A stretch of DNA of 64,000 nucleotides, filler included, from Asterionella formosa (taxonomy: Eukaryota): the NCBI GenBank assembly GCA_002256025.1. It is 12 parts of 12 records of this genome, joined end to end, with 100 filler letters (N's around TTAATTAATTAA, not from the genome) between each part and the next. Parts side by side here need not be neighbours in the genome. Positions count along the whole stretch, not along the records: positions 32,101 to 37,337 come from NKIB01013153.1; 11 more parts are not named here. One strand, 5' to 3'. The translations under genes and the position numbers were made by a program. Every line of letters begins with the position of its first letter. Position 1 is the first letter of the stretch. The notes under the pieces were generated by a model. It was not told the origin of the DNA, ran no database searches, and was given only the letters and a program-made list of their open reading frames with translations. Positions 1 to 55,883 of the stretch are shown here, piece by piece.

Positions 1-589
1 TATAGGGTTAGTGTTATATCATTTATATCAGAATTCAATAATGAGAGAACTCGACTAACCCTTATGTATTGTATACTTTGGTGTCGACTCAGAAGACGAG
101 CTGCACACAAAGAATAACTATTAAGCTCATATTATTCAACAAATACTACTACTTCTAGTTAGATACTCCACTTTGAATTCAAAAAGATTCCAATTAGCTA
201 AAATTAATAGTCATGCTGATGTACTGTCCTCTCAAGTTCTAGTGGTACCATTGATGAAGGATAACAACATACTAAATATCAAGACTCAGCCCTCTTTGTG
301 TATCCTTACAAGAAGCCAGGTCGATGTTTGGAGTTTTTCAACTAAGATATAATCAATTGATGTTCAGGGGAAGCTTGTTGATTGATTTCAGAAAATCCTG
401 TGATATGGCTAACACATATATCTTCAGTCCAGCAGATTCCTTACTTGCTCTCCTAGTACTGCTACAGAATATGCTTATAGATATCGTCTTGTCTGACTGG
501 ATAAGATTCTCCAAATCATAATCAATTTTGCTATCATCTTGGTGTTGCATGTGACTCAGCAAAATTTGTAGTTGCATAATGCCCTGATC

Positions 590-1050
590 AGTGTAGGTAT
601 CTGTGAATCCATAAGCACCCGCCTACTACTAAGGAAGCAAGGGGGGCCGAAAAATAATAACCTTTTTGTATGTGAATTGAATCCCATTCGTGGCAGTATT
701 GTGGGGAAGTAGGACTGATCTAGCTATTGTGGCGCACTCTTGTTGATTGAGGGTTGACCCACACAGAGGGTACTTCATAGCGGGTCACATCATCACCCTG
801 TATGCTAACATAACTTCGTTCCGTTTAAGAGTAGATGCTGATATGTTTTGGCTCATAGTCCTGTCTTTCTATATCAGGTAAGCCATCTCATTGTTGTTGT
901 TGCCATTGGAGCTAGCCTTGCCCCGAGGTTACGTGGTTCCATGCTTGAGTTTTTTTGTGGGATGACAGAGAATATCTGCTATTGATGACCGGATGACAAT
1001 GCTATCTCTACGTTCATGTCTTGTGGATGTTTGAGAATCATCTCATCATG
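590..1050 (-). mobile_element. Degenerate non-LTR (LINE, Ambal-like) fragment from just after the RT domain
   Basis: The minus strand reads PAMKYPLCG and, frameshifted, PTILPRMGFNSHTK, like the post-RT region of protist LINEs; broken reading frames. Confidence 0.4.
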
Positions 1051-1299
1051 TAACAGCTCCCATTCCATTACTACATAAAAGCATCTTCTATTGCCAGTGC
1101 GCAACCTGTTGTATATAGCAACTGCTCCCAATATTCTGTTTCTTGCATTGAATTGGAGAGCTCCTGAAGGTCCCCGCTGTCTAGAGCTAGCAGTAGGTTC
1201 GTGTCATCCACGTACGTTTTGGCTGTACGATTTTGTGTCCTGGTGCCATACCTACAACATGTCATGTTACAAAATCTGATTCGTTTCGTTCCCCAATTC

Positions 1300-1892
1300 G
1301 TCCTGGGTACACCACTAAAAAAAGGACAAATAAATAAGGCCATCTCCCAACAAAACGCTCTAGGTAATATAATGACACTAAGGGGGAGCAAAGAGCGGAG
1401 AGTGGAGAACAGGCAGAGATACACAGCCCAACGCAGGATCCAAGTCCGACACAACAAATCTGGAACCTATGGGTGAAAACGGCAATTTCACAACTCTGGA
1501 AAGTCACGGAGGGAGCATGGCATGAAAGGAACCAGGCAATAAACAATGGACAGAATAAATCGATATTACAATCAGAATACGATGAAAAAATTAAAAAAGT
1601 GTATCAACACAAAGGGGAAATCTCGAGTAGAGATGAGCACCTTTTTGGTACTCCTTTGGAGGATCTACTAAAACGAAGATTGGGAAAAGACCAGATTTTT
1701 GGAAAGAACCAAACACTTAGTCGCGGATTCAAAAGTATGGGCAGAGAAAGGTCAAAAATCAATAAGCTCCTCCTATCAACCAATACCCCCAGTTACGACA
1801 CAAACCAAGTAATAGCAATGACAAGAAATGGGGATATACAGAAAATCATTCACCCAATCAACACTCACCCTCCAATTCTCAAGCTGACATGA
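1300..1892 (+). mobile_element. Degenerate LINE (Ambal-like) ORF C-terminal fragment
   Basis: KAISQQNALG...RG...ISQLWKVTEGAWHERN matches the AI-QQ-xxG...LW...W-RN C-terminal pattern of these LINEs; frameshifted. Confidence 0.5.
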
Positions 1893-3942
1893 ACAGTGCA
1901 GTCAAAGGGAACCGATTCAAGATCAAAGCTACCACAAATGTTTTAATCCTACTTCTTCAAGAGGAGTTGAACACCCATGAAATGTTCCACCGCCCCACAG
2001 TACAAGGGCCATGGAGTGCAACGACGACAAACCTGGAAATAGACTAGAAAAAATGAGCTATAAATACGATTAATATATATACTTTGAACAACAAGGCAAA
2101 CAAATAGATTTTGGCGATAGCTGTCAATCGTCAATCCTGTCAAACCTTTTTGTCGCAATGAAGCAAGTGGTTGCTTTACGATTCAATGGTATACTGGAGT
2201 GTACCAGGTATCCCCATCAATTGTGCTCGAAATGACTGCCCTCCCCCTTTTCACAATTCGCATGTACATACATATCATGTTGGCCCATCTCTTAGATGTG
2301 ATTTTGTTTACCACTTCTAGCAGTCCTTACACTATAAATCCTGATTTTTAAACAGATGAGTGCGAATTGCATGTTATGATACAAGTTAAAGTATTTCTTT
2401 GCAATGAAAATTTGAACTAGTATCTAGACTCAACAAAATCGTGATATTATTCACGTTCACACTTGCAACCAATGAAGTCCTCTAGTAGTTCAAAGACATC
2501 TTTGTTTCGGTTCCTTGAAGCATGATTGATTTCATTTCGATAATTTGTGTTTATAATAGCAAACATTCCTATTGCAATAATGTCGAAGATGCACCAGGAT
2601 AAAACAAGTGGAATTCTTTTTGAGTCCAGGATCGATATTTTTAGTAATTAGAAACCAAGACATTCTATGTCTATGTTGCGATGAATTGGGATGCTTCTTT
2701 GTTGTCATATGATTTTAGATGCTCAATTATCATTGTATAAGCAAGTCAAATCATATTGAAATGATCAAAATTACTTTAGAAATCATGAAAGAGCAAGATC
2801 AGATAGACTGCTAACAAATAGCTCACAATATTGCAAAGTGTAAAGTGAAATAAGTTTTCAGCTTTGGTGATCTTGAAATTAAGATCTGTGATATTCTCAA
2901 CGAATGTTATAACGAGCGAACGTTGAGCTATTGTCGTCCATAAAAAATCGGCATTTTCTACCGACTCCAAAATGTCGGAATCAGAACCACATAGCGCCGA
3001 AACGTCATCATCTGAATCCGAGTCTTGTGATCCAATATTTAGTCGGAAAATTTCCAGCACCAAAAATTCCATTGTATGTGCGCGCAATATTATATATGTA
3101 CTGATTGGCTATTGCGAAATATTTTCCACCGTGTGATTGTGCGAGGAATCGCAAACCCACACCGGCCGCATTGGATACACATGAATAACATTTCCTTGGG
3201 TGTACCGGTAGGCCAGTATCATATCTACTTTGGGTACCAGTAGATGATCATCATTGAACATTATACGTGTACCAATCGTTGAGTGCACTTTCAAATATTT
3301 GCCGAACCGCAGGGTCATATCTAAGAAACAAAATCGTTGGTACATGTACATATAGCGATGTACAATGTCTATATATTTATTTAGCGAATTCGAAAAGGAA
3401 TCTATGTACGCATGCGCAAAATTCCACTGATTTGAATATTTCAAATGGAATCATGTCATTCCAAAATAGCTCATATAAATTCTTAGTTCTAGGGAATTTC
3501 GGCAACCCTAAGCAATATTTTATTTTTTGCCTTAGGGTTCACATGCAGCAACCCTAACATTTGCAATAATTGTATGAAAAATGTGAAAGAAGTCGATGAA
3601 TGCATTGTTGCAGGCGATGGTAAAAAAAGTCAATGGAAAGGAATGCCGAGATGTCTGGATGCAAAACAAAGCGACCAATGAGGCACTCTTGCTTATGAAT
3701 GTACCAGATATACCTAGTAATTTTCATAAAAACATTGTTAGCATAGGTACTTTTGTACGCAATGGTAAATGCAAACTTGGAATGAAGAAAAGCAAAATGA
3801 CTTCGAGAAAACAAGCCAAGCTGCAACGCTGAGTTTCAAACGTGATCATTCTGACATCTTCTTGTACTAGCTATTTCCAAGGAACTCGTAGAATTTGCCC
3901 AGTTAGGAGTGATATTTTTCTGCAGAGGTCATCACACCGAAA

Positions 3943-5358: not shown

Positions 5359-5635
5359 CGGTACTGTTTTTTGAAATTTGTTTGCATCAATATTTTCTAC
5401 GTCTGTTAGAACAAATTATTTACTTGCAGACCATTCAAATGGTGTACTAAGTCACAACCCATTTGTATCATTATTTATACGAAAGTATTCTGGTAGCAAA
5501 TTGTTTAAGCCCCTTATTTGGGCGGGAGTTCTTCATGTGTACCGGTACATCATACGACAATAACATTTATCATATATATAGAGAGTACCAGTAGCAGGTA
5601 GGAAGTGATATACTGGGGGTACCAGGTATTAAGGG

Positions 5636-6072
5636 AGCAACAGAACACCATATGTTCATGACTGTTGCTACTGCAGTGGGACAGTAAATCATCATAGTTT
5701 AAGGATCATATGATCATAAAATTGAAAAAGGATAAAGGGGGTAGTAAGCGAGCTACAGAGCACCATATGTTCATGACTGTCGCTACTGCAGTGGGACATT
5801 AAATCATCGTAGTTTTAGGATTGTATGATCATAAAATTAAAAAAGAATAGTCGGAGTAGTAAGCAAGAAATAGAACACCATACGTTCATGACTGTTGCTA
5901 CTGCAGCGGGACAGTAAATCATCATAGTTTTAGGATTGTACGATCGTAAAATTGAAAGAGAGTAGTCGGAGTAGTAAGCAAGCAACAGAACACCATATGT
6001 TCATGACTGCTGCTACTGCAGCGGGACAGTAAATCATCATATTTTTAGGATTGTATAATCATATAATTGAAA
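5636..6072 (+). repeat. 115-bp tandem repeat, about 3.8 copies
   Basis: CACCATA(T/C)GTTCATGACTG starts at 5646, 5761, 5876 and 5991, an exact 115-bp period. Confidence 0.95.
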
Positions 6073-6160
6073 ACAAGATATGCTATTACTCAAACTCGGT
6101 TCTGATGTTGTGCATTATAATGTAAATAGCACTGTTGGTTTTATGGTATCATATCTAGAC

Positions 6161-6430: not shown

Positions 6431-6633
6431 CTGGTATCCTACCAAGAAATTCGAATAAAGGAATCTAATAGAAACAATAGATAGAATAATGAAATATATG
6501 TAGTCAAAAAGGTTACTATTTAAGTTATAAGGGCATTTATCAAAATTATTAGATGATATAATGAAAAATTATGATCAGATGATCACAATCTTATGATGCA
6601 TCATGGAAATATGATATTTTTTATTTGTAGACG
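6431..6633 (+). mobile_element. Conserved terminus of an unclassified repeat element, copy 1
   Basis: About 200 bp homologous to 13311-13519 (+) and 26204-26411 (-); all end at TTTATTTGNAGACG. Confidence 0.8.
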
Positions 6634-8660
6634 TTCACAATACAATAAGCAAGCATTTCACAAATATTCTTACCTCAGATGAGTACTACAACACACTTCT
6701 GCATGAAATGACCAATTGTGGATCTCAACAGAGGCCAACTCACAAGATTGGCTTGACCAAGTAGCAACCTCATAATTCAAATGGTTTCATGCACGAATTG
6801 CAAAAATCCTGTGGAACAGCAAAGAAAAAACCTTCATAAATGTACCCATGTATGATGAATTGACACACCTTATCAATATTTTCACTGCACAGTGTCCCTT
6901 TAAATGGGAGGCACCACTTGGCCATCTTATCCCAAGATGCGCTGACTATGACTCCCTTGGCGATGCGTGCTTGAGAGGAGGAGGAGGTTTCTCCATTACC
7001 TTGATCTTTTGGTGGCAGATCACCTGGCCATTATCTCTCCAGCTTCGTACACTCTTGAACCTAAAGAGAAAGGATCCAGCCCTGCTATCCAGTAACTTGT
7101 TTGAGTATTTGAGCATAATTGTTAATCTGGCAGCGTGCATTGAAGCGATTGGACAAATACACAACAAGAACTCACCACCAGACCCTGTAGTCCAAATATG
7201 GACAGACAACACAGCAGCATCTGCATGGACCAGAAAATTTTCAAGTGGTACAGGAACCACAAACGAAAGCAAGTCCTTGGCAGGACTATTTTGTTACATC
7301 CTCATGCACTGGCGAATTGGTTTATCAGGCTCCTATACCAAGGGAGAGGAAAATGTTTTAGCTGACAAAATCTCCCGAACACTTGATCACACCCATTTTC
7401 AAATTGACTCACATTTTCATGTTGCTACCCAATCTCTCAAACAACAGATTCCCGAGATCCAAGGCTTGAGGTGTTTCCGACCAAGTCCCAAGTTACTCAA
7501 GCTCCTGAACTCCGCGCTCTCTACTGGATCTGTAATTATTCCCACAACCAAAATTCAGCTAGGACAGCTCAGTCACATGTAAGACATTCCATGAAATATT
7601 GCAGACAAAAACAGATTGACCCTTACCTGAAAACATACTTCCAACACCAACGCAACATCCAGATGGCTCTCTATGCCCAACACCTTCTTGCCCTTGGAAA
7701 CACAATCCATGGCACATTGTTGGAACGAGACACAATTGACGGATACACCTGTCATGTTGCCCAACACTTACTAAACCATTTCCGATAGTTAATTGTCAAT
7801 GACGCAAAAATTCTCCTCAATCCTTGGATCACCTCTCAACACACAGGACTTTGCTATGATTTGCAAAAAATCCTTGAGGAAATCACTCAATGGGAACACA
7901 GGCCCCAAAAAGCAAACCCTTTTACCAAAGAAATGCTTAATATCCTCTGCAAACAAGCACGAAAAGAATCCAACCCAAACAGCCTCACCGCATCCTTGGC
8001 TGATTGGCTAACCCTGGCCCTGTGCACTGGTTTACGCTAGTCTGAATATTGCCAACACTCAACACATACAAACAGGGGCACAATAGCTTACAACAATGAC
8101 AATGAGCCAAAGGCATTCTTAGCACAAGAATTTTGTTTCTTTGTCACCAATGAACACACAATCTCTGCAACACAAGCCATCATCATATTATCGCCGTTCA
8201 ATATCTCCAAAATTGAAATAACCTTGCGACGTCAAAAAAATTCAGAAGTTGATCAAACCCGCAACCTAGTAAGAGATGACAACCATCCTAAACATTGCCC
8301 AATCCACTCTATCCCTCGAATTTTTGTCCGAGCAAAAGACCATCACATACCCCCACTACACCCACTCTGTACATACACCATGGTGGATTGTCATCTAACC
8401 TCCACAGTAAAACTCATCAATGACCTGGAAATACGAGAAAAGATGAAAACTTAGCAAGCATTGTACAAAAAGTCAATGAACCCCTTGACCTAGCAAAATA
8501 CTCAACTCACTCTGCACGAGTAGGCGCTTATGTTCTTCTGTTCCTGGCCCACAAGCCAAAAGACATCATCCAATACTGCCTTCATTGGAAGAGTGACTCT
8601 TGGAAAGAATACCTCTGGCACCTCCCAGCAATGGCCCAACAACAAGTCTCAGCCATTAAT
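6634..8660 (+). mobile_element. 5'-truncated, decayed tyrosine-recombinase (DIRS/Ngaro-type) retrotransposon: RNase H then YR
   Basis: RNase H motifs GDAC...GGG, SNLFEY, WTDN, GEENVLADKISR (ORF 6848-7582). Then YR motifs across frameshifts: TGLR*SEY, RQKN, YSTHSARVGA, HWKSDSWKEYL. Confidence 0.85.
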
Positions 8661-13099: not shown

Positions 13100-13519
13100 A
13101 TTGGATTTCTTTTCAAACTCTTAACGGATTGCATAGTACAAACATACTGTGCAATGTAGATGATGATTCATCGAAGACATATGATGGCTTGAACGACAAA
13201 TGAAGATTTTACCACAAAATCTCGTTCCTCTCGACATGGCTGCTTTGTCGTTGTTGCAAGAATCAGAGTGAGGACTGGAGAGGATGATGAGCCAAACCAC
13301 ATTACTTTCACTGGTACATTCTCCTACCAAAAAAATTTAAATAAAGGAACCTAAAAGAAACAATAAATATAATAATTGAATTTCCATAGTCAAAAGGGTT
13401 ACTATTTAAATTACAAGGGCATTTATCACAATTATTAGATGATAAAACGAAAAATTATGATCAGATGATCATAATCCTATGATGCATCATGGAAATATGA
13501 TGGTTTTTATTTGCAGACG
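13100..13519 (+). mobile_element. Conserved terminus of the unclassified repeat element, copy 2
   Basis: Homologous to 6431-6633 and, over a longer stretch, to 26204-26660 (-). Confidence 0.75.
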
Positions 13520-15262
13520 CCACTACCCCTGATCCCCCACTGCGTAGCCCCGTTCCATCACTGAGGGTGCCCAGTACGCCAACAACATCCACCATCCACC
13601 TTATCCCTGATCCTGATGCCCGTACACCTCTCCCGGTCCCTCCAGTCATCGCTGGCAATGTCGAACCATTGAGGGTGTTTAACCCTAACCCTACCCCTAC
13701 CCCTACCAGCCAGAGTGTTGATAACCCTACCCCTAACCCTCACCCTGCTGACAACCCTAACCCTAAGTCCCCTACTGCCAGTGGCCCCACGCTCATTCCA
13801 ACACCCCCTCGCTCCTATCGAGATGCTGTTGTGCTGCCCAGTCCTCCTCCACCTTCCATTCCGGTCACATACGATACTACCACTGCGCCCAAGAGCCGCT
13901 GTTGCCGTAAAAACACACCACATGCTGGTCTTCCCCACACCCATTCTTTGCTTGCCAACCTTGCTCTGCCTCTCTGCCCCTCCTATCACCAGTGCTACTC
14001 CCCTGGTCACTGATTTTTGTTTCCATGGCACTGCTATCAACCCTGACAATGGCAAAATTGCTAACTATAAGGAATTATTGACTTGCAGCACTGCTCCCCT
14101 GTGGGCCACTGCCAACAGCTTGGAAATTGGCTGGTTATTTCAGGGCTTGGGACCCCATTCCGCCATGCCAACGGGGACTAATTGCTGTTTTTTCGTTCAT
14201 AAACACAACATGCCCGCACACAAACGCGCCACTTATATCCGCATTGTGTGTGCCAATCGCCCTGAAAAAACCATTCCCCAACGCGTTCGTTGGACTGCTG
14301 GGGGCGATCGTGTGATTTACACTGGCAATGTTAGCACCAAGACTGCTGATCTCACTACTGCAAAATGTTTGTTTAACAGCACCATCAGTATCCCCAATGG
14401 CCGCTTCATGACTCTGGATTTATCTGATTTTTGTCGACTTCTTGCCCCTGCCGATCATGAATACGTGCTCATCCCTATATGGATGATTCCCTCACGCATC
14501 AAAACCCTCTACAGCCTATCTACCAAAATCATTGATTGGCACGTCTACGCCGAAATTCGCCTCGGCATGTATGCGCTGCCTCAGGCTGGTAAACTTGCCA
14601 ATTTTCAACTTGCCCAGTTTTTGCTCCTGCATAATTACCTCCCCTGCCCAGTCACCCCTGGCTTATGGATGGATACCACCAGTGATCTCATGTTTTTGCT
14701 TGTTGTTGATGACTTTGGCGTACGTTACACCAAACGTAGTGACGTGGAACGTCTTGTCACCACTTTATGCACCAAATACCATCTCGCAACTGATTGGACT
14801 GGCTCCCGTTACATTGGCCTTATGCTGATGTGGGACTATGAACACTGCACTATTGACCTCACTATTATGCCTGGCTAGCTACATTGTTCGTGCCCTACTA
14901 CAACGATTCACCCACTCCACTCCAACACACCCGCAACATGCCCCCCATGCCTGGACTGCACCTAGTTATGGCGCTCGACAGCAATTTGTTGTTCCTGATG
15001 TCACTCCCGTCCTTGACCTTCATGATTAAAAACATGTGCAGGAGGTTCTTGGTAGTACCACCTTACTGTATTATGCCCATGCTATTGACTTTACTATGTT
15101 ACCTGCCCTTGGTACAGTGGCTACACAACAAGCAACCCCCACTGTGGCCACCTTAACTGCTACAGTATTTCTCACCTTCTCAACTATTGTGCCACCCATC
15201 CTGAAGCCACACTCCAATATACAGCCAGTGACATGGTCCTACATGTTGAAAGCGATGCCTCC
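13520..15262 (+). mobile_element. Decayed CoDi-type Ty1/Copia retrotransposon: Pro-rich linker and reverse transcriptase, cut at the RNase H start
   Basis: ATYIRIVCANRPEK, RVRWTAGGDR, TADLTTAK, FMTLDLSDF, GMYALPQAG, LVVDDFGV, ending at ESDAS; internal stops. Confidence 0.9.
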
Positions 15263-16299: not shown

Positions 16300-17010
16300 C
16301 AGCTGCTCATCCTTCTCTTCTTTTTCTATATTGTACTTGCTAGAGTTATCGCTGTAGACTATTTGTAGCAGCTCCGAAAATGAGAAGGCCATCGTGGCAC
16401 ATCTCAATTTTGACTCACTACGGCGACCTGCAAGGTTAAAATATGCAACAGCTGTTTCTTAACGATTTTACGAATTCAATTGTTGTCAGCTACTCATCCT
16501 CTGGTTCTTTTTCTATATTGTACTTGCTAGAGTTATCGCTGTAGACTATTTGTAGCAGCTCCGAAAAGGAGAAGGCCATTGTGGCACATCTCAATTTTGA
16601 CTCACTACGGCGACATGCAAGGTTAAAATATGCAACAGCTGTTTCTTAACGATTTTACGAATTCAATTGTTGTCAGCTACTCATCCTCTGGTTCTTTTTC
16701 TATATTGCACTTGCTAGAGTTATCGCTGTAGACTATTTGTAGCAGATCCGAAAAGGAGACGACCATTGAGGCACATCTCAATTTAGAATCACTAAGGAAA
16801 CATGCATTGAATATTTAAAATATGCAACAGCTGTTTCTTAACGAATTTACGGATTCAATTGTTGTCAGCTACTCATCCTCTGGTTCTTTTTCTATATTGT
16901 ACTTGCTAGAGTTATTGCTGTAGTCTATTTGTAGCTGCTCCGAAACGGATAAGGCCATTGTGGCACATCTCAATTTCGATTCACTACGGAGACATGCAAT
17001 GCTTAAAAAC
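16300..17010 (+). repeat. 187-192-bp tandem repeat, about 3.8 copies
   Basis: TAGAGTTAT(C/T)GCTGTAG at 16341, 16528, 16715 and 16907. Confidence 0.95.
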
Positions 17011-17538: not shown

Positions 17539-17556
17539 AGCGTCTTAGATGTACTT

Positions 17557-18056
17557 CCATGGCACACTTCCCACAGAAATTGGATTCTTGACAAGTCTCA
17601 CTTATCTAGATTTGTCAATCAATACTTTCACTAGCAAACTTCCCACAGAGACTGGACTCTTGACAAGTCTCACTTATCTATACTTATACTCCAATACTTT
17701 CAATACCAAACTTCCCACAGAGATTGACTCTTGACAAGTCTCAATTATCTAGATTTGTCTGACAATTCTTTCAATGGCACACTTCCCACAGAGATTGGAC
17801 TCTTGACAAGTCTCAATGTTCTAGATTTTTCTTACAGTACTTTCAATGGCACACTTTCCACAGAGATTGGCTTTTTGACAAGTCTCAATTATCTAGATTT
17901 GTCTGACAATTCTTTCAATGGCACACTTCTCTCCAGAGATTGGACTCTTGACAAGTCTCAATAATCTATATTTGTTCTCCAATACTTTCAATGGCACACT
18001 TCCCACAGAGATTGGACTCTTGACAAGTCTCATTCATCTAGATCTGTCTGACAATA
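17557..18056 (+). pseudogene. Leucine-rich repeat array fragment (24-aa/72-nt units, about 7 copies), frameshifted
   Basis: GTLPTEIGLLTSLxxLxLxxNxF repeats split over three ORFs by indels near 17727 and 17930. Confidence 0.9.
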
Positions 18057-26203: not shown

Positions 26204-26660
26204 CGTCTCCAAATAAAAACCATCATATTTCCATGATGCATCATAGGATTATGATCATCTGATCATAATTTTTCGTTATATCATCTAATAATTGTGATAA
26301 ATGCCCTCGTAATTTAAATAGTAACCCTTTTGACTGCATATATTTAATTATTATATGTATTGTTTCTATTTGATTCCTGTATTCGAATTTCTTGGTAGGA
26401 TAATGTACCAGTTCAAGTAATGTAATTTGGCTCGTCATTTCCATCCGCCCCTCATCACTCCGATTTTTGCAACAACAACGAAATACTAGCAATGACAAGC
26501 GGAATGAATGTTTGCGATAACGTCTTCAATTTTTTGGTCAAGTGATCTTTATATCTTCGAGTAATCGTCATGTGCAGTGAACCTTTGTTCATAATCATTC
26601 AATTAAGAGTTTACAGGAGAGAAGAAACCATTCGAACTCGTAATGTTTCCGCACACAGCG
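26204..26660 (-). mobile_element. Conserved terminus of the unclassified repeat element, copy 3
   Basis: Reverse complement matches 13100-13519 and 6431-6633. Confidence 0.8.
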
Positions 26661-32000: not shown

Positions 32001-32261
32001 NNNNNNNNNNNNNNNNNNNNNNNNNNNNNNNNNNNNNNNNNNNNTTAATTAATTAANNNNNNNNNNNNNNNNNNNNNNNNNNNNNNNNNNNNNNNNNNNN
32101 ATTGATTCCTTCCAGTCCAGACTAATATGTACTGTGGAGTTTTTCATGTTGTGACTGATACATGACTAAATATAACGAGTTAAATTTTTAATCCTTATGT
32201 ATAGCCCTTTTATTCGGGAGAAAATTTACTATCTCATGATGTATATAAAGTTGAAGTAAAA

Positions 32262-32621
32262 GGGAATGGCTTAGTGGTTTAGCACATTGTCTTTGAACTG
32301 AGGTTGTGAGGTTCGATTCCCGCAATTTTTTAGAATCAATTGTTTGGTTCAACTCCCACACTCTTAACCATGCCGTACAGTTTTGCCTGGTGTGCAAGAA
32401 ATAGTGGGTTGCCTCCCTACAAGCAGCTTGTGTCGCCCTCCGAGGCAGACGGAGTTTCCCCTAACGCTGCTGCTAAGATGATCACCTTTTGCGAAAGGTG
32501 GTTGGGGACTCACCTATGCTAACAAAACTAGGAAAGCACAGGTCTTGTTGGCAGGTAGTACAATGACAGACTTGCCTAGAAAGAGGGGAGTACGAATGGG
32601 CTTTAAAACATACTAACTTTT
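32262..32621 (+). mobile_element. tRNA-derived SINE, copy A, with target-site duplication
   Basis: A box TGGCTTAGTGG, B box GGTTCGATTCC; flanked by TAAAGTTGAAG(T/G)AAAA at 32246-32261 and 32622-32637; homologous copies in two other contigs. Confidence 0.85.
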
Positions 32622-32983
32622 TAAAGTTGAAGGAAAAAGAAACTATGGTTTTCATAATGGGCCTCAAACAGAGACTGAAATCAGCCGAATGAGCTGGAAA
32701 GAACCTGATAATACAATATGAAACATGATGTGTATGCATTGTTAGGCTTTCAACACAGAAAGTTGCCTCACATGGTCCCTGCACCTGCCTGGAAAATAGT
32801 AATCTGCTATAACAACAGTGCATACCAACCATCGGAGTTGAAATATGAAGGTATCAATACTAATTGTCACAATGTATGATGGAATCCTAAGCTTGGCAAA
32901 GTTTGCAACAAACAACATACATATAGCCAAAAATATAAATTACGGTCTAATCAAAAAACTTTGAGCTGTCAAGTATGAAACTT

Positions 32984-34526
32984 TTATGATTGTTTCGGTC
33001 TTTTCGTGGATTCATCAGTGGCTGCAGTAGTCGTTGTTCGCTTTTTCCTCTCTTCGCTTTCAGACACCTGCCCAAGGGAGTTCATGTCTGCCACGAGGGA
33101 TCGAAGTGAAGAGGTGGTCTTGCTTTCAACTGACATGGTGAGGGCTACATTTGCACCAGCGGGAGGTCGTCGAACCTCTTTCCGCTCTGGAATGCCTTCA
33201 TCGTTCGCCGAGTCCATTACTTGCTCATTAAGGCGGTGAATCATATTGATAAAGAGGCGCTCATCTTCGTAAAGCCCTTCTTTTCCTTCTTTCAGCAAAA
33301 GGTCAGAGACTTGTTCATACAGTTCCTCACATCGGTTAATCATTTCAAGAATGACGGGGTAACTGGTAAAGTTAGCGTTGTTGACCACGTTCGCCATGAA
33401 TGCATTTCGTGTATTGAATCCAGTGACCTTGTCGTGCTTCTTGAGAATTTTAGAAAAGGAGCAGTAGGTCATGATTGCAAAGGTCTCCAAAAGTAAGAGG
33501 TCCTTATACAGTCGATAGAGGGATTTGGCTAAGAGAGACCATTTTTCGTTGACCATGATTGAATTGGGCTTCTTCATAATCTCCATTCCCTCTCTCACTC
33601 GCTCCTCCCTAATTATAAACTCCTCTTGTGCCTTATTAAAAAAGTGTGTTGCCTTCTTGAACTCGGCGTGAATCAATTTGAAGAACGCAACTTCCCCTGG
33701 AGATTGCCCAATGGCTTTCACGCTATTGCTCGAATCAACGATATTAATTGTCTCAACTGCAGCTTTGAAGTCTTCGTGTTGCACAAAACTGTCGTCCCCT
33801 AAGTCTGCTTGCTTTCGTTTCTTCTCCGTTGTTTTGTCACCATGTTGTTGCTTCGCCGAAACAACGGAGGCGGCAGACGATTCAACGGAGGAAGGGGAGC
33901 CTGGTCGGGATTTTTCATTGGATTCTGACCTTGCTCGTTGCGCCGGTCTCAAAGCATCGTCAGCGGGAACTAATGAAGGGAGTTCCTTAATCAATTTCTA
34001 TAAGACAGGATTAGGAAACAGCTGTTAGTGAGAAATAAATGCATAAGTCATTTATCATCGTGAGTTACAATCACATGTTGGAATGATCAAGCAACAAGGG
34101 CACAAAATTCAATCTGTCTTGTGAATGATGAATCAAAGCGAATCTTTAAAATGTTAATAATTCACAAACCATCATATCGGAACATACAATATATCCGAAT
34201 GATGTAGATAGAGAAGGCGAAATAAACAGAAACCAACTTGATGTACTCCGAACAATGTCGCCGACAATTCCTCAGAACCCGGTGAAATGAATCTGAGGTG
34301 AAAATATGATTGTATACGTAAAAAAATTATGTGCGTAATATTCACGGCAAATGTCAATCGATGAATCTACAGCGGTGAATGACAATGAGAAGGTCAACAA
34401 TGAAGGAATCATTACTGATTCTCAACCGCTGTATCTCACCTTCAACATTTTGTAATTGGTCCAGTAAGGCGCCCATTCAGGATCGGAGATCTCAACGACT
34501 CGTTGTAGGTTTTTGCAGAACTTCAT
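32984..34526 (-). CDS. Stand-alone SPX-domain protein (phosphate/inositol pyrophosphate sensor), 2 exons (34440-34526, 32984-33997), 366 aa
   Basis: MKFCKNL...W..Y..NYKMLKKLIK; FFKLIHAEFKK; FSKILKKHDK lysine cluster; GT-AG intron at 33998-34439. Confidence 0.92.
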
Positions 34527-37437: not shown

Positions 37438-38058
37438 ACAAACTCTCCCAAAAATTCCCCAACAGCCGCACCCACATCGGTTCCAACAAACTCGCCAACA
37501 ATTTCCCCAACTGCCAATCCCACCAGGGTTCCAACAAAAACTCCCACAAATTCCCCAACTGTCGCTCCCACCAGGGTTCCGACAAACTCTCCCACAAATT
37601 CCCCAACAGCCGCACCCACATCGGTTCCAACAAACTCGCCAACAATTTCCCCAACTGCCACTCCCACCAGGTTTCCAACAAAAACTCCCACAAATTCCCC
37701 AACTGTCGCTCCCACCAGGGTTCCGACAAAGTCTCCCACAAATTCCCCAAAAGCCGCGCCCACATCGGTTCCAACAAACTCGCCAACAATTTCCCCAACC
37801 GCCACTCCCACCAGGGTTCCAACAAAAACTCCCACCAAAGCCCCGACGAAAGCTCCCACCAAATCCCCAATGAAAACTACAACCAAATCCCCGACGAAAG
37901 CCACAACTAGATCCCCAACAAAGGTTCCAACCAATCCCCCCACTAGCACTCGAACAAGTGTGTCAACAAGCGCTCCCACTAAATCCCCTGCTACTTCTCA
38001 AGCAAGTCTGGCAACAAAAGCTTCCCTAATAAAGAAACCCACAGTTCGCCCACAATAG
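37438..38058 (+). CDS. C-terminus of a Pro/Thr-rich (xxPT repeat) mucin-like protein, partial
   Basis: Open frame from the contig start of SPT/APT/VPT tetrapeptides; 144-bp higher-order period (37462, 37606, 37750). Confidence 0.75.
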   Translation, partial: TNSPKNSPTAAPTSVPTNSPTISPTANPTRVPTKTPTNSPTVAPTRVPTNSPTNSPTAAPTSVPTNSPTISPTATPTRFPTKTPTNSPTVAPTRVPTKSPTNSPKAAPTSVPTNSPTISPTATPTRVPTKTPTKAPTKAPTKSPMKTTTKSPTKATTRSPTKVPTNPPTSTRTSVSTSAPTKSPATSQASLATKASLIKKPTVRPQ

Positions 38059-38849: not shown

Positions 38850-39183
38850 AAATTGGCTGAGTAATAAAGCATGTTGCTTTATCTTTGATCTGAACTTGTG
38901 TAGTTTGATACTCGCAATGTTTTTGAGACACATTTGTTGGGTTCGACTCCCACACTCCATACTATCCTGCACAGTCTTGCCTAGCGTGCAAGAAATATTG
39001 GGTTGCCCCCTAAGCAGCTTGTGCCACATTCCTAGGCAGTCGGAATTTCCCCTAGCTAAAGCTTCAGCTAAGACGCTCAGCCCCTTGTCACAAAAGATGG
39101 TCAGGGACTCATTGTCGCTAACAAACTAGGGAAGCACAGGTCTTGTCAGCAAGTAGCACAATGAAATACTTGACTAGAAAAAG
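38850..39183 (+). mobile_element. tRNA-derived SINE, copy C (diverged)
   Basis: Shares GTTCGACTCCCACACTCC, GCAAGAAATA.TGGGTTGCC, AAGCAGCTTGTG and CTAGGGAAGCACAGGTCTTGT with copies A and B. Confidence 0.8.
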
Positions 39184-39289
39184 TGAATGTGTGAAGGAGC
39201 TTAACCAAACTAAGGTGTTGAAAGCAACGCATGAGCCAGCTGTCAATTGCAGTGTTAAATTTAAGTTCTTATCATCAATAAACAGTCCG

Positions 39290-40635: not shown

Positions 40636-42673
40636 CTACATCACCCACGAGAGGATTATATCGATTCCAGAAAAGATTAGTAAACATAAGAGCACAGGAA
40701 GCAGTAATAAGGTCGTCACAGCGGCATGCTGTTCAAGGCACCATTCGCCTAAGTGATGAGGTCCATCAATCCAGCTGGACTTGCCATTCTCGGCGTACGT
40801 TTCCTGGCTTACACCAAAAATGCGGAACCAGACGCGATGCGGCGCTTGAGAAGCGTGTGCCAACCACTGATAACTGAACGGCGTTCTCCAGCCTCCAAGA
40901 ACAAGATGGTCGGAACCCTGGAAGGCAATATAGTTTGAAGATATGATGTTGCTCACAATTATTGTTCCTGACGCAGTGAAAGGAGCGTAGACTCCGTTGC
41001 GACCAACAGTCTGAATGGCTTCAACGGCAACATGTTCTCCGGTGAACGTTTGCAGATTGTCTCCAACTGTAACATCAGAAGCAGGAATAAACTGACCGTC
41101 AACTTTCAGCATGTGATCGAACGAGATTTCAATGCCGGAAGGAAGGAACCGCAGAAAGACAGCTTCAACAGTTTCGTGACGATGACCAAAGCTGTAAACT
41201 GTTTCGAATTCTCCAGCTGCACCGAGAACCTCATCGCCTAGCTGTAGATCTTTCATAAATACGGTGCCTTTGTCTTTCACTACCACTGTGGTTTCTCCTG
41301 AAAAGCATAGTTGGAAAGGAAAGGTTGGTGTGCTTGGAGAACCTGGTGCAGGAGTCGGAGCTGGCGTGACTATTGATGAGGGTGCAACAGTTGTAGATAT
41401 ATTAGTTGATTCGAAGAAGCCATATGATTGACCTGTCTTGACGACGACGTTGTTCAAATACAGTTTGTACGATCCAGGAGGCTGAAGTCCGTCACCTTGG
41501 GAATCAAAAATAGTGAAAGTGAACTGCTGATTAATGGGAAGGCAAATATCGTGAACAATTGTTTTTCCACTGAAGGAGCCGTCGATCGAATTCAAGTAGC
41601 CATTTCTCACAGGGTTTATGTATAGGTTGGGCCCTTTTAGTTCCCAGCTTACTTCTCCAGCATAGCGGTCGAGATTTAGTTCAATTTTCAGTAACATGCT
41701 GTCTGATGCGCAGCGTTCGTTCATTTTGCGATATAGCGACCAAACGATGAACATGCGTTGGATCTGACCAGCAGTGAACTCTTCCAAGCATGGATCATCG
41801 GTGTAATCCATGTAGTTGTTAATAGGATCGATACCAGGTTGACCAGGGCATGAGTCCCTTCCAATTGGACACTTGGCACTATAGCTTGCCTGCTGGGGCG
41901 TATCGCCAACAAAGTCACCCAAGTTATTTGAATCACAGGAATTGCCTTCAAATGTGTGGTACAACCCAAGCCAATGGCCCACTTCATGAGTCATTGTTTT
42001 TCCAAGATTGCAGCAAGACGAAGAACCCCCTGGGACAGTGTTGATGTCAATGAATACCCCATCCGGTGCATTGAACTTTGACAAATTATTTCCAGTATTG
42101 AATAGCTCAGGAAAGCGAGACCAAGAGCCCCCTCTGGTCTTGCTGCCAAAGTACGCCATTAAACTCTCCGGTCCACCTGCCTTGTACAGAGTTCCAACAG
42201 TGTAGTCGGCGTTTGTCATATTAAGAAAGTATTCATCATTGACAACATATTTTGTTCCCATTAAATAAAATAGGAAAGGTGTAGCAGCAAAGTCCTCATT
42301 CAATACTTGCATTTGCGCATCAACGACGGTAGTATCCATTTCAGAGGGCTTGCCATTGGAAGGCTGGAATCTGTTTGGTTTGGTTGGGAGTGGACAAGGT
42401 GCAGGTGAGTGATACGGTAGTAGTAGCAGACATTTCACGTTGGAAACTCACATGACAAAGTAAGTCGGTATAACGATGGTTTGCGCGTCGGGTAAGCCAT
42501 TTGTCGATCGTCTATTCGCAAACGTTTCAATCTCCTTGTTGAGTTTAGCGGTTTCTTCAGGAGCAGGAGAGTCAGTGATGCAGCGCCCCGAGTGACTATG
42601 GGTGTAATTGTTGTTACTAACATCGCTTGAAGCAACGCCAAGGGCCATCAAAGCCAACAGTAAAAGGGATGGA
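40636..42673 (-). CDS. Secreted M43 (pappalysin/ulilysin-like) zinc metalloprotease fused to a Hedgehog-type Hint domain; intron 42371-42451; start lies beyond the contig edge
   Basis: THEVGHWLGLYHTF, Met-turn NNYMDY, PT linker, Hint CFSGETTV...MKDLQLGD.V...SFDH...GVYAPFT.SGTIIV, hydrophobic C-terminus. Confidence 0.9.
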
Positions 42674-44968: not shown

Positions 44969-46908
44969 TTTATATTGGAATAATCCTAGAATAGTACATA
45001 AATAGTTCATGTATAAAGGATGGTGCAATCATTCCTCCATTGACCTGCTTTGCTTTGTTCAAGCTTAAAACTATTGTCAATAGAAAATCTGCTGAAGGGA
45101 AAACCAAGGGAGGTTGGAGACTGCCTTCAAGTATTCTTGTGTTCCAGATGGTGAAGGCTTTGTAATAGGTTGACTATATTATGGGTGTCAGGTAGGCAAT
45201 TCCCAACCCAGCTAGTGGTGAGCTTTTTGCCACTGATTGTCCATTCACCAATTGAAAACATATTTGGGATAGTTCATATTTTTTATGCAGTGGCCAACTG
45301 CCCTTCATATAAAACATGAAATTAAATGTTTCATATGTTCCAGTTTTTCGAGTATACAATGCTGCAATTGCCAATCATATGAAAATACATATGTTTTGGT
45401 TATTTCATATAATAATGTTTGTATATTCCTATGATATTGTTTTACTGATTCAATAGTGTTAAATAGCCCCTAGTAGATGAGGCTGCTGAATTGGAGTGCT
45501 AATTATTAATGAGTTGAATACATAAGATAGTTTAATATAGATTTGCTTGCCATTTACTTATGGTTGGCCTGCCGAAACTTGAGCGAGAAAACGATGAGCA
45601 TATTGGTACAAACAAGCAATTTTCCATAAAGTGACAATGGCATTTCTATTTTTACTATGCTCATCATAACCCATTATTCCCAGATCGATGCAAACTTTTT
45701 CATCGAAAATTCGCTTGCATGATTTGCCAGATTTGCTAGATGCTGATGAATCAGGTGATGATTCAAAAATGAAATATATCAATCATTTTTATAGCGCCTT
45801 TACCCTAGCCTATTTCTATATTTGGCATTGTTGCGCTCCATGGCCCATAGAGAGGTGGGTTCGTGGTGGAAGTTTGTTGGTGGTCACTACCTTGAGTAGG
45901 ATTGTATTGGTAAAAAAATTGCTAGCTGCAGTCTTGTACTATCCTATCCAAGTAGCCGAGTGGTTCATGTCGCTCAGCCAGGGAATTGGATTCAAAGTAT
46001 GGATTGTTTGTAATCCGGTTGCTTGAGCCACACCTAAGTGTTTACAAGTGGAGCAGATATTGATCACTAGCCATGTGTCATCCGCAATTCGTGAATCAAG
46101 TTACCGCACAGCATTTACGGATTATTTAAGTAAAAAACAATGGACAGGGAACTAAACATATCTTAAGTTTCGTGGATTGGAAAATCATGCCAACGGCCGG
46201 TGCAAAATTAGAAAGACAACAGAAATTGACGATTTTCAGATTGGAATTTGATCTACTGGCAATAATGAGTGAGTCCACGAAAAAATTCCAAACCCGCATA
46301 TAGATGGAAGGTGCCCTGGGTGTGGCAGGTTCAACGAAGATTTCAATCATGTAGTTCAATGTCAACACACATCGACAGAACTCAAAAAATCCTGAGTGAA
46401 ATTGAGGGGAGCACTCAGCTAGGGGAGGTCGCTCATACATGACTATCATAGTATGTTCTTCAAATGTTTAGCATGGGCATGGACCAGTGTTTCTCCGCAA
46501 GCCCAGTCAGGTGGCAGGGTTCCACGCCAGATCCGGATGACTTGGTGAGACATGACAACTCATGTTTGAATCTTTTCTGAATGAACAAGGCATTGGATGA
46601 GACCAGCTTCTCCACGGCCGTGTCAGCGCTAATTGGGGCAGGGGTAATGTAACTTACCGCTGCGTGACTGAAGATCAATATAGTACTAGGATATGTAGGC
46701 CTTAGTATAGATTTTCTTTTGCATTTAATAATTAGGAGTAAAAAATTGTGACGCATACAAAATTGATGCAAACTCTTTGATATATATATATCTATATTGC
46801 CCTCCACTCATTTCCCCTCAAAAGGTATGTAACATCGATCTGTTGTCGTCGTTCATGTTAGTTGATTTTGCTCCTTGCTTCTTATTAGCTTCGTTGCTCT
46901 GTTGTTTG

Positions 46909-50185: not shown

Positions 50186-52507
50186 AGTCATATGCTGTGT
50201 GTTCTCTCGTTTTTGCCAATAGAAGAATTCTGCTATTTATTTCGTTGAACCATGCTATGTGTAGAAGACGCTTTTTATAAAAAATGAATAAGTCCCTGTC
50301 CAGCAACACATTGTCTGTTTCAATAAAATGACTGCAACTTGCTGGTAAACTCTGGATCAGAGGCAAAACCATCTCTAAATTACTGGTAGGGGGTTCATAT
50401 CATTTTGTATTTTGTGTCACTTCATTTGAAAAGGCAATAAGCAATGGCTATACTTGCTTTGAACCGAAAATACTTGTACCTAGTAGAGTATAGTATATAT
50501 AAGGAGTATTCCTGACTAGCTTGTTTTCAAGCTATTGCTATTTTTACTTTGATAACAGCATGGTGTTTGCCTTGTTCTGGTTGACATAAAATGTGCTATT
50601 CTTGACAATCAGGTTGTTCAATTTAGATCATTATAGGTATTTGTGTTTCTAAAAGTAGCAAGCAGATCGAACCATCTGATCCTCCCCAATACATATGCAC
50701 ACCTGCATCAAAAGGGAACAACACCTGCATTGGTGGGCGGTAATATCTATAAAAATTATCTTCATAAATTAAATAGAACCATTTTTTCTATGCCTATTCA
50801 AATTGTATTTGTATTCTTTCCATTTTGTTCCTGCATTCAAGTTTCCTCAAAGGATCATGTACTTGCAAACATAATGGATTCTTTGGTTCATCATCATCAC
50901 TTCCTCCATTTTTCGCTTTGCTGACTTCAGCACTCAAACAGTGATGTCAATTTAAATGATTATCTTATAAAATTTTCTCAGAACTTCATGATGTGATTGC
51001 TTTCTCATTATCATGCCATAGTGAATTGAATGTTTGTAAACATTCTGTGATGATTCCTCCAAGAATTCATGTGACAACCAAATGGTGCCACTGTCTGCAC
51101 ATGTCATAAAAAGTCAGTTATCCAACAATCGTCGCCACATTTAACAACATGACAACATCAATCAATTCATAACCACATTTATTGAATGTCCTTCTACTGC
51201 TTGACTGGGGTGTGTGGATGACAGAAAGACAGGTCTGGTTGTACTGTACATTTAAATAAACTGATACTGATTGGGTCCATTGTTTGGGCACAAGTGCGGC
51301 CGACTATTGGATTGCGTTAAGGTACTATAAAATTTAACTGATTTGTCTGGGATTGAAGTCTTGAAATGTTCAATTAGGTGAGAGCATGGTTGTTCTTGGT
51401 AAACTCGATATGCGGCTATAAGAGTGACTGATATGACCGTGGAAGTATGACCGGAGTGTCTGGTAACTCCATCTGCTAAATGAATCGCCACCTGCTGAGT
51501 TCAGGACTCTGCCACTGCATCGACCTGTTCTAAATTTTAATGTGCCGCCTGCTTGGGAGATGGTGGAGAGGGGACTACCAGTATGTCCTAGAACTATTTA
51601 TGAAAAAAGATATCTCAGCCATGTACCCAATTATGAATTCTCGAGTTACTTAGGCAATTGCAGGTGACAGATATAGCAGCGATATGGCATGAAAAAGGCA
51701 CCAAATAAATCGAATGCGATTTTTTAATGTAACAATAAATCCTCAAAACATGGGGTTAATCCGTGTTCTTGCCAACGTTTTGTCAATGGCTCTTTCAACA
51801 AATATCTTTGGACAAACTATTTGCTATAAACTTGTTATATCTAATGTTATAGCCTAAAAGTGCACATTCTCATTAGGAGGGGGGGGAGGGGGTGAAATTG
51901 TCATATTCAATATATTGGCATTTGGCAGGGGAGAAACATTTTTGTTTCTTGTTCAGTGGGTCACAGCAGCTTTAAGTAGTAGTACTGGGATTCGTGGTAT
52001 TATGGTACTGGTAGCTAGTACATTAACAATCAGAGCTGTCAAGCTACTGCAGGAAGTAGTTTAGCCTCCTCCTTGACAGGATGTCCAGGTCAATGATATT
52101 TTGGAAGAATGCTTGTAAAACAAGTGAGCATATACAGCACACAATTAATTGGGATGGGAAAACATTGTGACATCGAAATATTTGGCTTTCAATGTCAGAA
52201 GTGGGAATGAAATTACCTACTGTTTCACTTATGATTAATGAAACAAAAGAATAATATCATGGTTCGATGGTTTGCTCATAGAGATGACCATGGGAGTAAA
52301 TGAAGCCAACAACCATGATGGTTCCTAAACCAAAACTCATGCAATCCACACTTTTGGGTTTCTTCTTCAATCGGAGAATCGGTAGGGGTAAAAAGAGATT
52401 AATCTACCGGGTTAAAAAATCATGATGGTCATTTTTCATTATTTTCAATACCTGATAGAGTATTCTTCTTCATGAGAGCAAAACAAATATGTGGAAAAAC
52501 AACTGCC

Positions 52508-55503: not shown

Positions 55504-55883
55504 AAAAAAGTTATTATGTTTTATAACCCATTTGTACTCCCCTATTTTAGGCAAGTTTTTCATTGTGCTACTAGCTAGTACCTACCAACAAGACCTGTGC
55601 TTCCCTAGTTTTGTTAGCGTAGGTAAGTCACCAACCAACTTTCAGGAAAGATGATGGTCTTAGCCGCAGTGTTAGGGGAAACTCCGATCGCCTAGGAAGG
55701 CGGCACAAGCTGCTTGTAGGGGGGGGGCAACCCACTATTTCTTGCGCACCAGGCAAGACAGTGCGGTACAGTAAGGAGTGTGGGAGTTGATACCAACAAT
55801 TGATTCTAAAAGAAATTGCGGGAATCGAACCTCACAACCTCAAATCAAAGGCAACGTGCTAAAAAAACACTAAGCCATTCCCT
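55504..55883 (-). mobile_element. tRNA-derived SINE, copy B
   Basis: Reverse complement is colinear with copy A from GGGAATGGCTTAGTG to TAACTTTT. Confidence 0.85.

Follow-up and report, generated by a model that had tools for sequence, protein, structure and literature searches.

A tRNA-headed SINE family in the diatom Asterionella formosa and its resemblance to the 3′ end of a resident LINE

The window, that is, the whole 64,000-nucleotide stretch of DNA analysed here, joins 12 unrelated contigs of about 5.2 kb, with N spacers between them, from an assembly of 68.4 Mb in 15,436 contigs. Three different contigs each hold one copy of a tRNA-headed SINE, labelled A, B and C (Table 1), as an earlier note on this DNA had proposed. 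BLAST aligns copy A with copy C at 83% identity over 380 nt (E 7e-110) and with copy B at 76% over 341 nt (E 2e-58). The coordinates given in the note hold to within 1 nt for copies A and C, and copy B ends at 39213 rather than 39183; the boxes of copy A, its second B-box-like motif and its 15/16 duplication are as the note described them. The last A of the left duplication of copy A may be the first base of the element. No duplication was seen around copies B or C on inspection of their flanks, and ARAGORN found no tRNA genes in the whole window. A locus 100% identical to copy A (L001) was considered as a new insertion and rejected, because its flanks are also identical (161/161 and 1500/1500) and the same locus has been assembled twice.

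Table 1. Features of the SINE copies and of LINE-related sequence, in window coordinates
Feature	Position	Strand	Remarks
SINE copy A, full length	32262-32621	+	start 32261/32262; ~9% from family consensus
SINE copy B	38854-39213	+	older; ~17% from consensus
SINE copy C, full length	55505-55883	-	
Left target-site duplication, copy A	32246-32261	+	16 bp, starts with TA
Right target-site duplication, copy A	32622-32637	+	15/16 identical to left
tRNA-like head, copy A	32262-32325	+	A box 32267-32277, B box 32310-32320
Internal T run, copy A	32326-32331	+	T6; family mode T7; position of tRNA acceptor stem 3′ strand
Second B-box/T-arm motif, copy A	32347-32357	+	
Body, copy A	32360-32549	+	common to older subfamily
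LINE-like tail, copy A	32550-32617	+	includes GAAA-loop hairpin 32575-32586
Terminal T run, copy A	32618-32621	+	runs on into first T of right duplication
LINE 3′ end, decayed	1965-2085	+	last ~70 nt resemble SINE tail
LINE C-terminal ORF piece	1368-1892	+	directly 5′ of LINE end; 28% identity, E 6e-6 to L338
RT piece, YVDD motif, same LINE group	533-1229	-	inverted relative to LINE 3′ end
Second LINE 3′ end, 5′-truncated, same family	45771-45894	-	
Family B piece, decayed, headless	51207-51341	+	

An SPX-domain gene (32984–33997) lies on the opposite strand to copy A and ends about 350 bp downstream of it. The window also encodes mitochondrial ribosomal protein L43, the legible organism names among 120 listed hits being those of diatoms only, and a frame (40636–42447) in which a metalloprotease-like HEXXH region precedes a Hint-like domain. 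The sequencing runs that contain this DNA are freshwater and algal ones, and we take the host to be a freshwater diatom. Other repeats include an RNase H-like frame (6776–7582), whose motif we take to be that of a DIRS-type retrotransposon, a Copia-type reverse transcriptase piece (13673–14878) and another dispersed repeat of about 400 bp (26204–26612, 13115–13519 and 6435–6633; 80–91% identical). Tandem repeat arrays occupy 16300–17008, 5625–6073, 17543–18056 and 37438–37988, the last of which encodes a PT-rich low-complexity protein.

Searching the genome with copy A gave at least 41 near-full-length matches (best 40 of 745 candidates scored). Across 30 fetched loci, similarity begins at one GGGAATGG and stops at one short T run, and the flanks are unrelated. 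Eighty further stretches were added, 79 of them from the first 100 of 130 matches to a 20-mer of the body and one from the copy-A search. Removal of repeated sites and of copies near contig ends left 66 distinct full-length copies, a sample biased towards well-preserved ones. Target-site duplications (score ≥9) flank 46 of the 66, compared with 0 of 518 mismatched flank pairs; in an earlier set, 19 of 29 copies had a duplication score of at least 8, where the maximum among 810 mismatched flank pairs was 7. The duplications are 10–19 bp long (mode 16) and perfect in 20 of 46 cases. Of the 46, 42 open with T, against an expected 59% if T's of the tail were absorbed (p 1e-6); 26 start with TA and 13 with TT. 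For copy A itself, two paralogous loci (L291 and L305) carry the older repeat that hosts it with the target site single and empty.

The long, variable duplications and the empty sites of copy A bear out the LINE-type insertion proposed in the earlier note. A genome search of the kind that it suggested recovers both copies and duplications and, in the fetched loci, no larger common element, and the T-rich 3′ end that it described is a short terminal T run at a fixed position. The family has the features of a SINE2/tRNA element, being a short dispersed non-coding repeat with a tRNA-like 5′ region, variable duplications and a simple-sequence 3′ end, and we regard it as almost certainly a genuine SINE.

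Not all matches are complete. The 80 anchored matches comprise 58 with head and young tail, 12 that are headless with a tail, 6 at a contig edge, 1 with the old tail and 3 that are tailless. The 26 listed 5′-truncated copies have no convincing duplication (best score 7), which leaves truncation at insertion unsupported, and several 5′-truncated copies are internal deletions or later damage. Rearranged copies were also encountered. At L012:861–1601 two SINE copies lie head to tail with a 16-bp duplication present three times; since these copies differ at 48 of 358 sites, a second insertion at the same site is likelier than duplication. At L119 and L240, SINE 3′ halves are arranged head-to-head or as a fold-back.

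Copies lie 3.1–20.6% from the consensus and none is closer than 3.1%. Their CpG sites diverge by 0.207 as against 0.054 elsewhere, about fourfold faster, as expected for methylated dead copies that decay neutrally. Judged from these divergences, none is very recent and recent activity is not evident.

The body 20-mer has 130 exact matches on both strands (control 0). It is present in 13/29 and 12/27 sampled copies, a carriage rate that together with the 130 matches implies at least about 290 copies, and four distinct hits among 308 kb of loci that had been retrieved for unrelated purposes correspond to about 900. We put the probable copy number at roughly 300–900, or 0.15–0.5% of the assembly. 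First-look candidates numbered 745 for the whole query, 411 for the head and 283 for the tail. The high copy number claimed in the earlier note therefore stands at the level of hundreds, which were counted, and not at the approximately 3000 to which the window's three copies per 63 kb would extrapolate. DNA-run depth on the element is hundreds-fold above that of the flank, a measure that is no copy number. A metagenome scan returned one locus (L332), a headless near-consensus copy, and neither a partner LINE nor a SINE from other species.

Two relatives accompany the family described so far (family A). An older subfamily has the first 297 nt or so in common with it at about 90% and differs in the last 65 nt or so; its copies are 8–18% diverged and 6 of 10 have duplications. 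Sister family B, of about 235 bp, has the same head and another body, with at least 42 matches (704 candidates) and duplications in 20 of 23 copies. We infer from these relationships that the family may have spread in waves with tail exchange. Neither relative figures in the earlier note, nor do the internal T run and the LINE-like tail described below. At two unrelated loci (L127 and L115, - strand), one inverted-repeat-rich sequence of about 85 bp is joined to the SINE 3′ half at consensus nt 170, either as a chimeric subfamily or through capture by another repeat.

The head of copy A scores 16.1 bits with the Rfam tRNA model, under the cut-off of 29. We compared the heads with 47 distinct tRNA sequences of the assembly, none of them tRNA-Gln (Rfam search, best 63 of 3876 candidates), labelled as organellar or nuclear by judgement from contig context. 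For family A the best values were 58 for organellar Ala, 56 for Gly and 54.5 for Asp, followed by nuclear Ala(AGC) at 54 and Arg(CCT) at 53, a result that alone is not decisive. The older subfamily head gave 64 and 60 for Ala against 54.5 for the next isotype, and that of family B gave 65 for Ala(AGC) against 49 for the next non-Ala. The family B head also closes a seven-pair acceptor stem, the 3′ strand of which equals that of the host tRNA-Ala(AGC). A pattern search for tRNA-Gln found none. By way of the older subfamily and family B, the head is best explained as a putative decayed tRNA-Ala, within a comparison set that holds no tRNA-Gln. The tRNA-like head and its boxes were correctly recognized in the earlier note; its derivation from tRNA-Gln(UUG) is disfavoured, Ala fitting better in that same Gln-free set. 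In the consensus the second T-arm motif is identical to the first T-arm region at 19 of 27 positions and probably arose when part of that region was duplicated.

When 665 kb of SINE-masked loci were searched with a profile built from family A tails, the top match was a non-SINE LINE end (E 6e-4; best reversed control 0.17). Both LINE ends in the window match the tail (shuffle p ≤0.002) and are paired with each other by window self-BLAST. Seven such ends were collected, to which the last 85 nt of copy A are 57–65% identical (69–85 columns). Their last bases are AT repeats, which agrees with the TA or TT starts of the SINE duplications, and no duplications were found around the seven ends themselves. 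A profile of five LINE ends, partly circular in that three of them were found with a profile containing two SINE-found ends, matches the tail in 32 of 66 family A copies, in none of 10 of the older subfamily, none of 23 of family B and no reversed controls. The family B tail matches the end of L338 (E 5e-6; best control 3), which represents a different type of end within this LINE group.

L338 is a decayed but collinear LINE with reverse transcriptase (RT) motifs (QG..SP and YVDD), RNase H-like motifs, a C-terminal region and a 3′ end, and both the RT piece and the C-terminal ORF piece of the window are homologous to it; the RT and RNase H assignments and the name Ambal-like are our own reading. 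Pfam and PDB searches with the LINE pieces of the window and the L338 ORFs recognized neither RT nor RNase H and gave one chance propeller hit. A 535-aa homologue (P0244; 52% over 61 residues) falls in the Atlas with RVT_1 clusters (0.96) and a diatom cluster (0.94). Ambal elements have a divergent RT followed by an RNase H-like domain, and the partner LINE resembles them as a diatom LINE with a divergent RT and then RNase H-like motifs (L338), a likeness of domain layout. A homologue search with the LINE C-terminal piece returned none, and an intact partner LINE was not found.

The comparison with resident LINE ends that the earlier note proposed indicates that the SINE tail, about 65 nt long, is homologous to the 3′ terminus of a decayed RT/RNase H-type LINE residing in this genome, which makes the two a candidate pair. 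Because tail identity is just 57–65%, the actual partner is related to the LINE ends found but is none of them. The link from RT to LINE end is collinear for family B. For family A it is indirect, through the C-terminal ORF (E 6e-6 to L338), because the RT piece in the window is inverted against the LINE end. This stretch (533–2085), with its RT part on the - strand and its C-terminal part and 3′ end on the + strand, has the look of either twin priming, in which the 5′ part is inverted on insertion, or two pieces lying side by side. At five loci (L271, L277, L286, L230 and L275) a variant of the family A tail has a different last 12 nt or so and is nearer to the LINE ends.

An RVT_1 search of the genome (best 150 of 224 candidates scored) missed this divergent LINE group altogether. 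Its matches were Gypsy elements, telomerase and a single young APE-RT LINE with one ORF, and among the same 150 no RTE-type partner was identified. Twenty weaker RT hits are mostly Gypsy-type, with one L1-like and three in which our scan showed no motif, and none matches the family A consensus. A Pfam endonuclease search of the genome returned nothing, the known LINE included, and is uninformative. The young APE-RT LINE (L064, L106 and L183–L201) has a single ORF of about 1475 aa with a C-terminal CCHC-like motif, a GC content of 55–57% and a poly(A) end. It was found only in contigs under about 3.3 kb and with self-nested junctions; its 3′ UTR has a T-arm/B-box-like hairpin, and those of its relatives that carry a name belong to brown algae and a chytrid. 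Downstream of one young LINE end (L193, - strand) are a few telomere-like CCCTAA units, which may hint at subtelomeric insertion. A 1058-aa open frame at L103:2333–5507 (- strand) is telomerase reverse transcriptase-like. The 642-bp contig L166, with a frame that we take to resemble mammalian L1 reverse transcriptase, is probably assembly contamination.

Directly behind the head the family carries a T run, of at least 5 T in 55 of 66 copies and at least 6 T in 44 of 66, which is present in both subfamilies and sits where family B keeps an Ala-like acceptor strand. The base after runs of at least 6 T is G or A in 43 of 44 copies. Following 25 nuclear tRNA genes, the first run of at least 4 T is T4 in 14, T5 in 5, T6 in 5 and T8 in 1; the internal run is longer than that of 19 of the 25 (T4–T5), and longer than the 3′ run of the element itself. 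Head-only copies were found at 0 of 30 loci (30 of 40 head-query matches, a few of them the same site twice), all of which continue into the body. SINE pieces occur within longer RNA contigs, which give neither ends nor levels, and no free transcript of about 360 nt was seen among them; of the 4 RNA runs covered, out of 24 listed, one is rich in heads. In family B the head is followed by an internal T5 run and then C. All three tails have a TATAA-like motif 12–17 nt before the final T run. Deletions between the B-box motifs take out the internal T run at L112:1261–1584, L303 and L323.

We think it probable that this is a stringent-type tRNA-derived SINE moved by the decayed RT/RNase H-type LINE through their common tail. 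Pol III would transcribe a few master copies from the internal A and B boxes, and part of the transcripts would read through the internal T6–T7 and finish with U at the final T run. The protein of the LINE would bind the LINE-derived tail and nick AT-rich DNA before a T, whereupon the terminal U of the RNA would pair with the 3′ A of the target and target-primed reverse transcription would proceed in place. Short transcripts stopping at the internal run would be without a tail and go uncopied. The simplest account of the T run is that termination leaks and that the reverse transcriptase depends on the tail and so passes over short RNAs.

The T run could also be taken at face value, with Pol III stopping at T6–T7 and the copied RNA being cut at the head (RNase P-type) from a Pol II transcript of a few master loci. 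The frequency of the run in both subfamilies, without the weakening C that follows it in molluscs (PMC4758252), would fit such processing, as would the SINE pieces inside longer RNA contigs and the acceptor-like stem that the head can still form, either through G-U pairs or with the duplicated part of the T arm. However, Pol III leaves just such a 3′ end, fixed in a short T run and lacking poly(A), the A and B boxes are intact in all three families, and internal T runs have a precedent (PMC4758252); we consider processing from Pol II RNA unlikely. Another explanation keeps Pol III but makes the SINE a relaxed one, moved via its U tail by the young poly(A) APE-RT LINE (or any LINE), so that the tail resemblance would be a functionless relic. 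Among the non-LTR elements found, that LINE alone is intact (at least 102 matches, nearly all at 93–100%; relative P0001, 1475 aa), but none of the three tails resembles its 3′ UTR (p 0.14, 0.17 and 0.73), which ends in poly(A), and its copies differ from one another by about 1%, whereas the SINE copies are at least 3.1% from their consensus. Priming by a U tail should moreover give head-only copies, of which none was seen at the 30 loci. This explanation we hold to be quite improbable.

It is very hard to credit that the copies are retrocopies of a functional structured RNA or of a ribozyme-bearing element, even though several hairpins can be drawn and the earlier note described conserved hairpins. 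The body folds like its shuffles (z -0.33, no excess), and four stems diverge by 0.047–0.078 against 0.047 elsewhere, as fast as the rest. Two details of the hairpins named in the note differ in these copies: TAGGT of the ACCTA...TAGGT stem is absent from copies A and B, and in place of the TCTTGC arm copy A has TTTTGC. A match to a known ncRNA, which the note named as grounds for abandoning the SINE reading, was not found; Rfam, run on copy A and a younger copy, gave no family near cut-off and no ribozyme. An HDV-like pattern occurs also in 18/100 shuffles and fails in the older subfamily, and hammerhead and RNase P/MRP readings are unsupported by the Rfam and fold checks. The GAAA-loop stem in the tail has two variants that differ by a paired change (15 versus 19 copies, 4 mixed, n=66), which would favour a structured RNA, but this change is one subfamily event; the same hairpin is imperfect in the LINE ends. 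Body nt 100–295 has no match in the 665 kb of SINE-masked loci. That the element is a solo LTR, a MITE or a piece of something larger is barely conceivable: although the L127 and L115 loci have about 85 bp of another repeat ahead of a truncated copy, similarity stops sharply at both ends with unrelated flanks, and duplications that are long and variable (10–19 bp) are unlike those of LTR or DNA transposons.

Beyond the stringent pairing itself, a more far-reaching possibility, which we offer tentatively and think doubtful, is a diatom SINE superfamily with one tRNA-Ala head and at least three bodies or tails that depends on Ambal-like RNase H LINEs, spread in two waves and had masters that all carried T6–T7. 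If true, either Pol III of diatoms transcribes past runs at which the yeast and animal enzymes stop, or Pol II RNA is processed in a tRNA-like manner, and a short head-only RNA could be an abundant by-product. The stringent pairing would extend the SINE-LINE model to diatoms and provide a handle on a poorly known LINE group, and the internal T run makes Pol III termination in diatoms directly testable. In practice the copies should be masked as repeats and might serve as insertion markers; the mechanism is one already known.

Unicellular eukaryotes were long believed to contain few SINEs (PMC5859163, PMC7466962). Among diatoms, putative SINEs are mentioned for Phaeodactylum (13 copies, 1454 bp; PMC5859163) and in the genome papers of Cyclotella (PMC7466962) and Pleurosigma (PMC12803021). 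In the sections of these papers that we drew on, they are pipeline categories without head origin, duplications or partner, and our comparison with them is by description only (PMC5859163, PMC7466962, PMC12803021). The consulted sections of the open literature contain no described diatom SINE family or diatom SINE-LINE pair; the repeat tables of PMC5859163 and PMC7466962 may bear on this. SINEs of this design are familiar from animals and plants and hardly described from diatoms, and in the same sections we did not find the pairing of a SINE with an RNase H-bearing, Ambal-like LINE in print. Ambal is a Repbase clade of non-LTR retrotransposons (PMC5753468), and LINE/Ambal is abundant in Pleurosigma (PMC12803021).

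Mollusc Vhc and Snail SINEs likewise have an internal potential Pol III terminator (PMC4758252), which there is T4–T5 followed by C, a weak context, whereas here it is T6–T7 with G or A as the next base. Au-like SINEs of plants, which RTE LINEs mobilize, also have a short T tail and duplications that begin with T (PMC6007223), but their T stretch at P-10 is absent here (0.37 against a background of 0.36). In family A, though not in family B, T is mildly in excess at P-21 to -17 (0.50, rotation p 0.001). Duplications in animal RTE elements are mostly ≤13 bp, compared with 15–19 bp here (PMC6007223). Stringent SINE-LINE pairs include tobacco TS with an RTE element and Chlamydomonas SINEX-3 with L1-1_CR (PMC3747384). 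The present pair differs from these, as far as the cited account describes them, in its diatom host, its RT/RNase H-type partner, a tail that is 57–65% identical rather than near-identical, its internal T6–T7, and a SINE that ends in T where the LINE ends in AT repeats. It agrees with them in the tRNA-like head with A and B boxes, the non-coding body, the LINE-like 3′ end, the long and variable duplications and the exchanged tails (PMC3747384).
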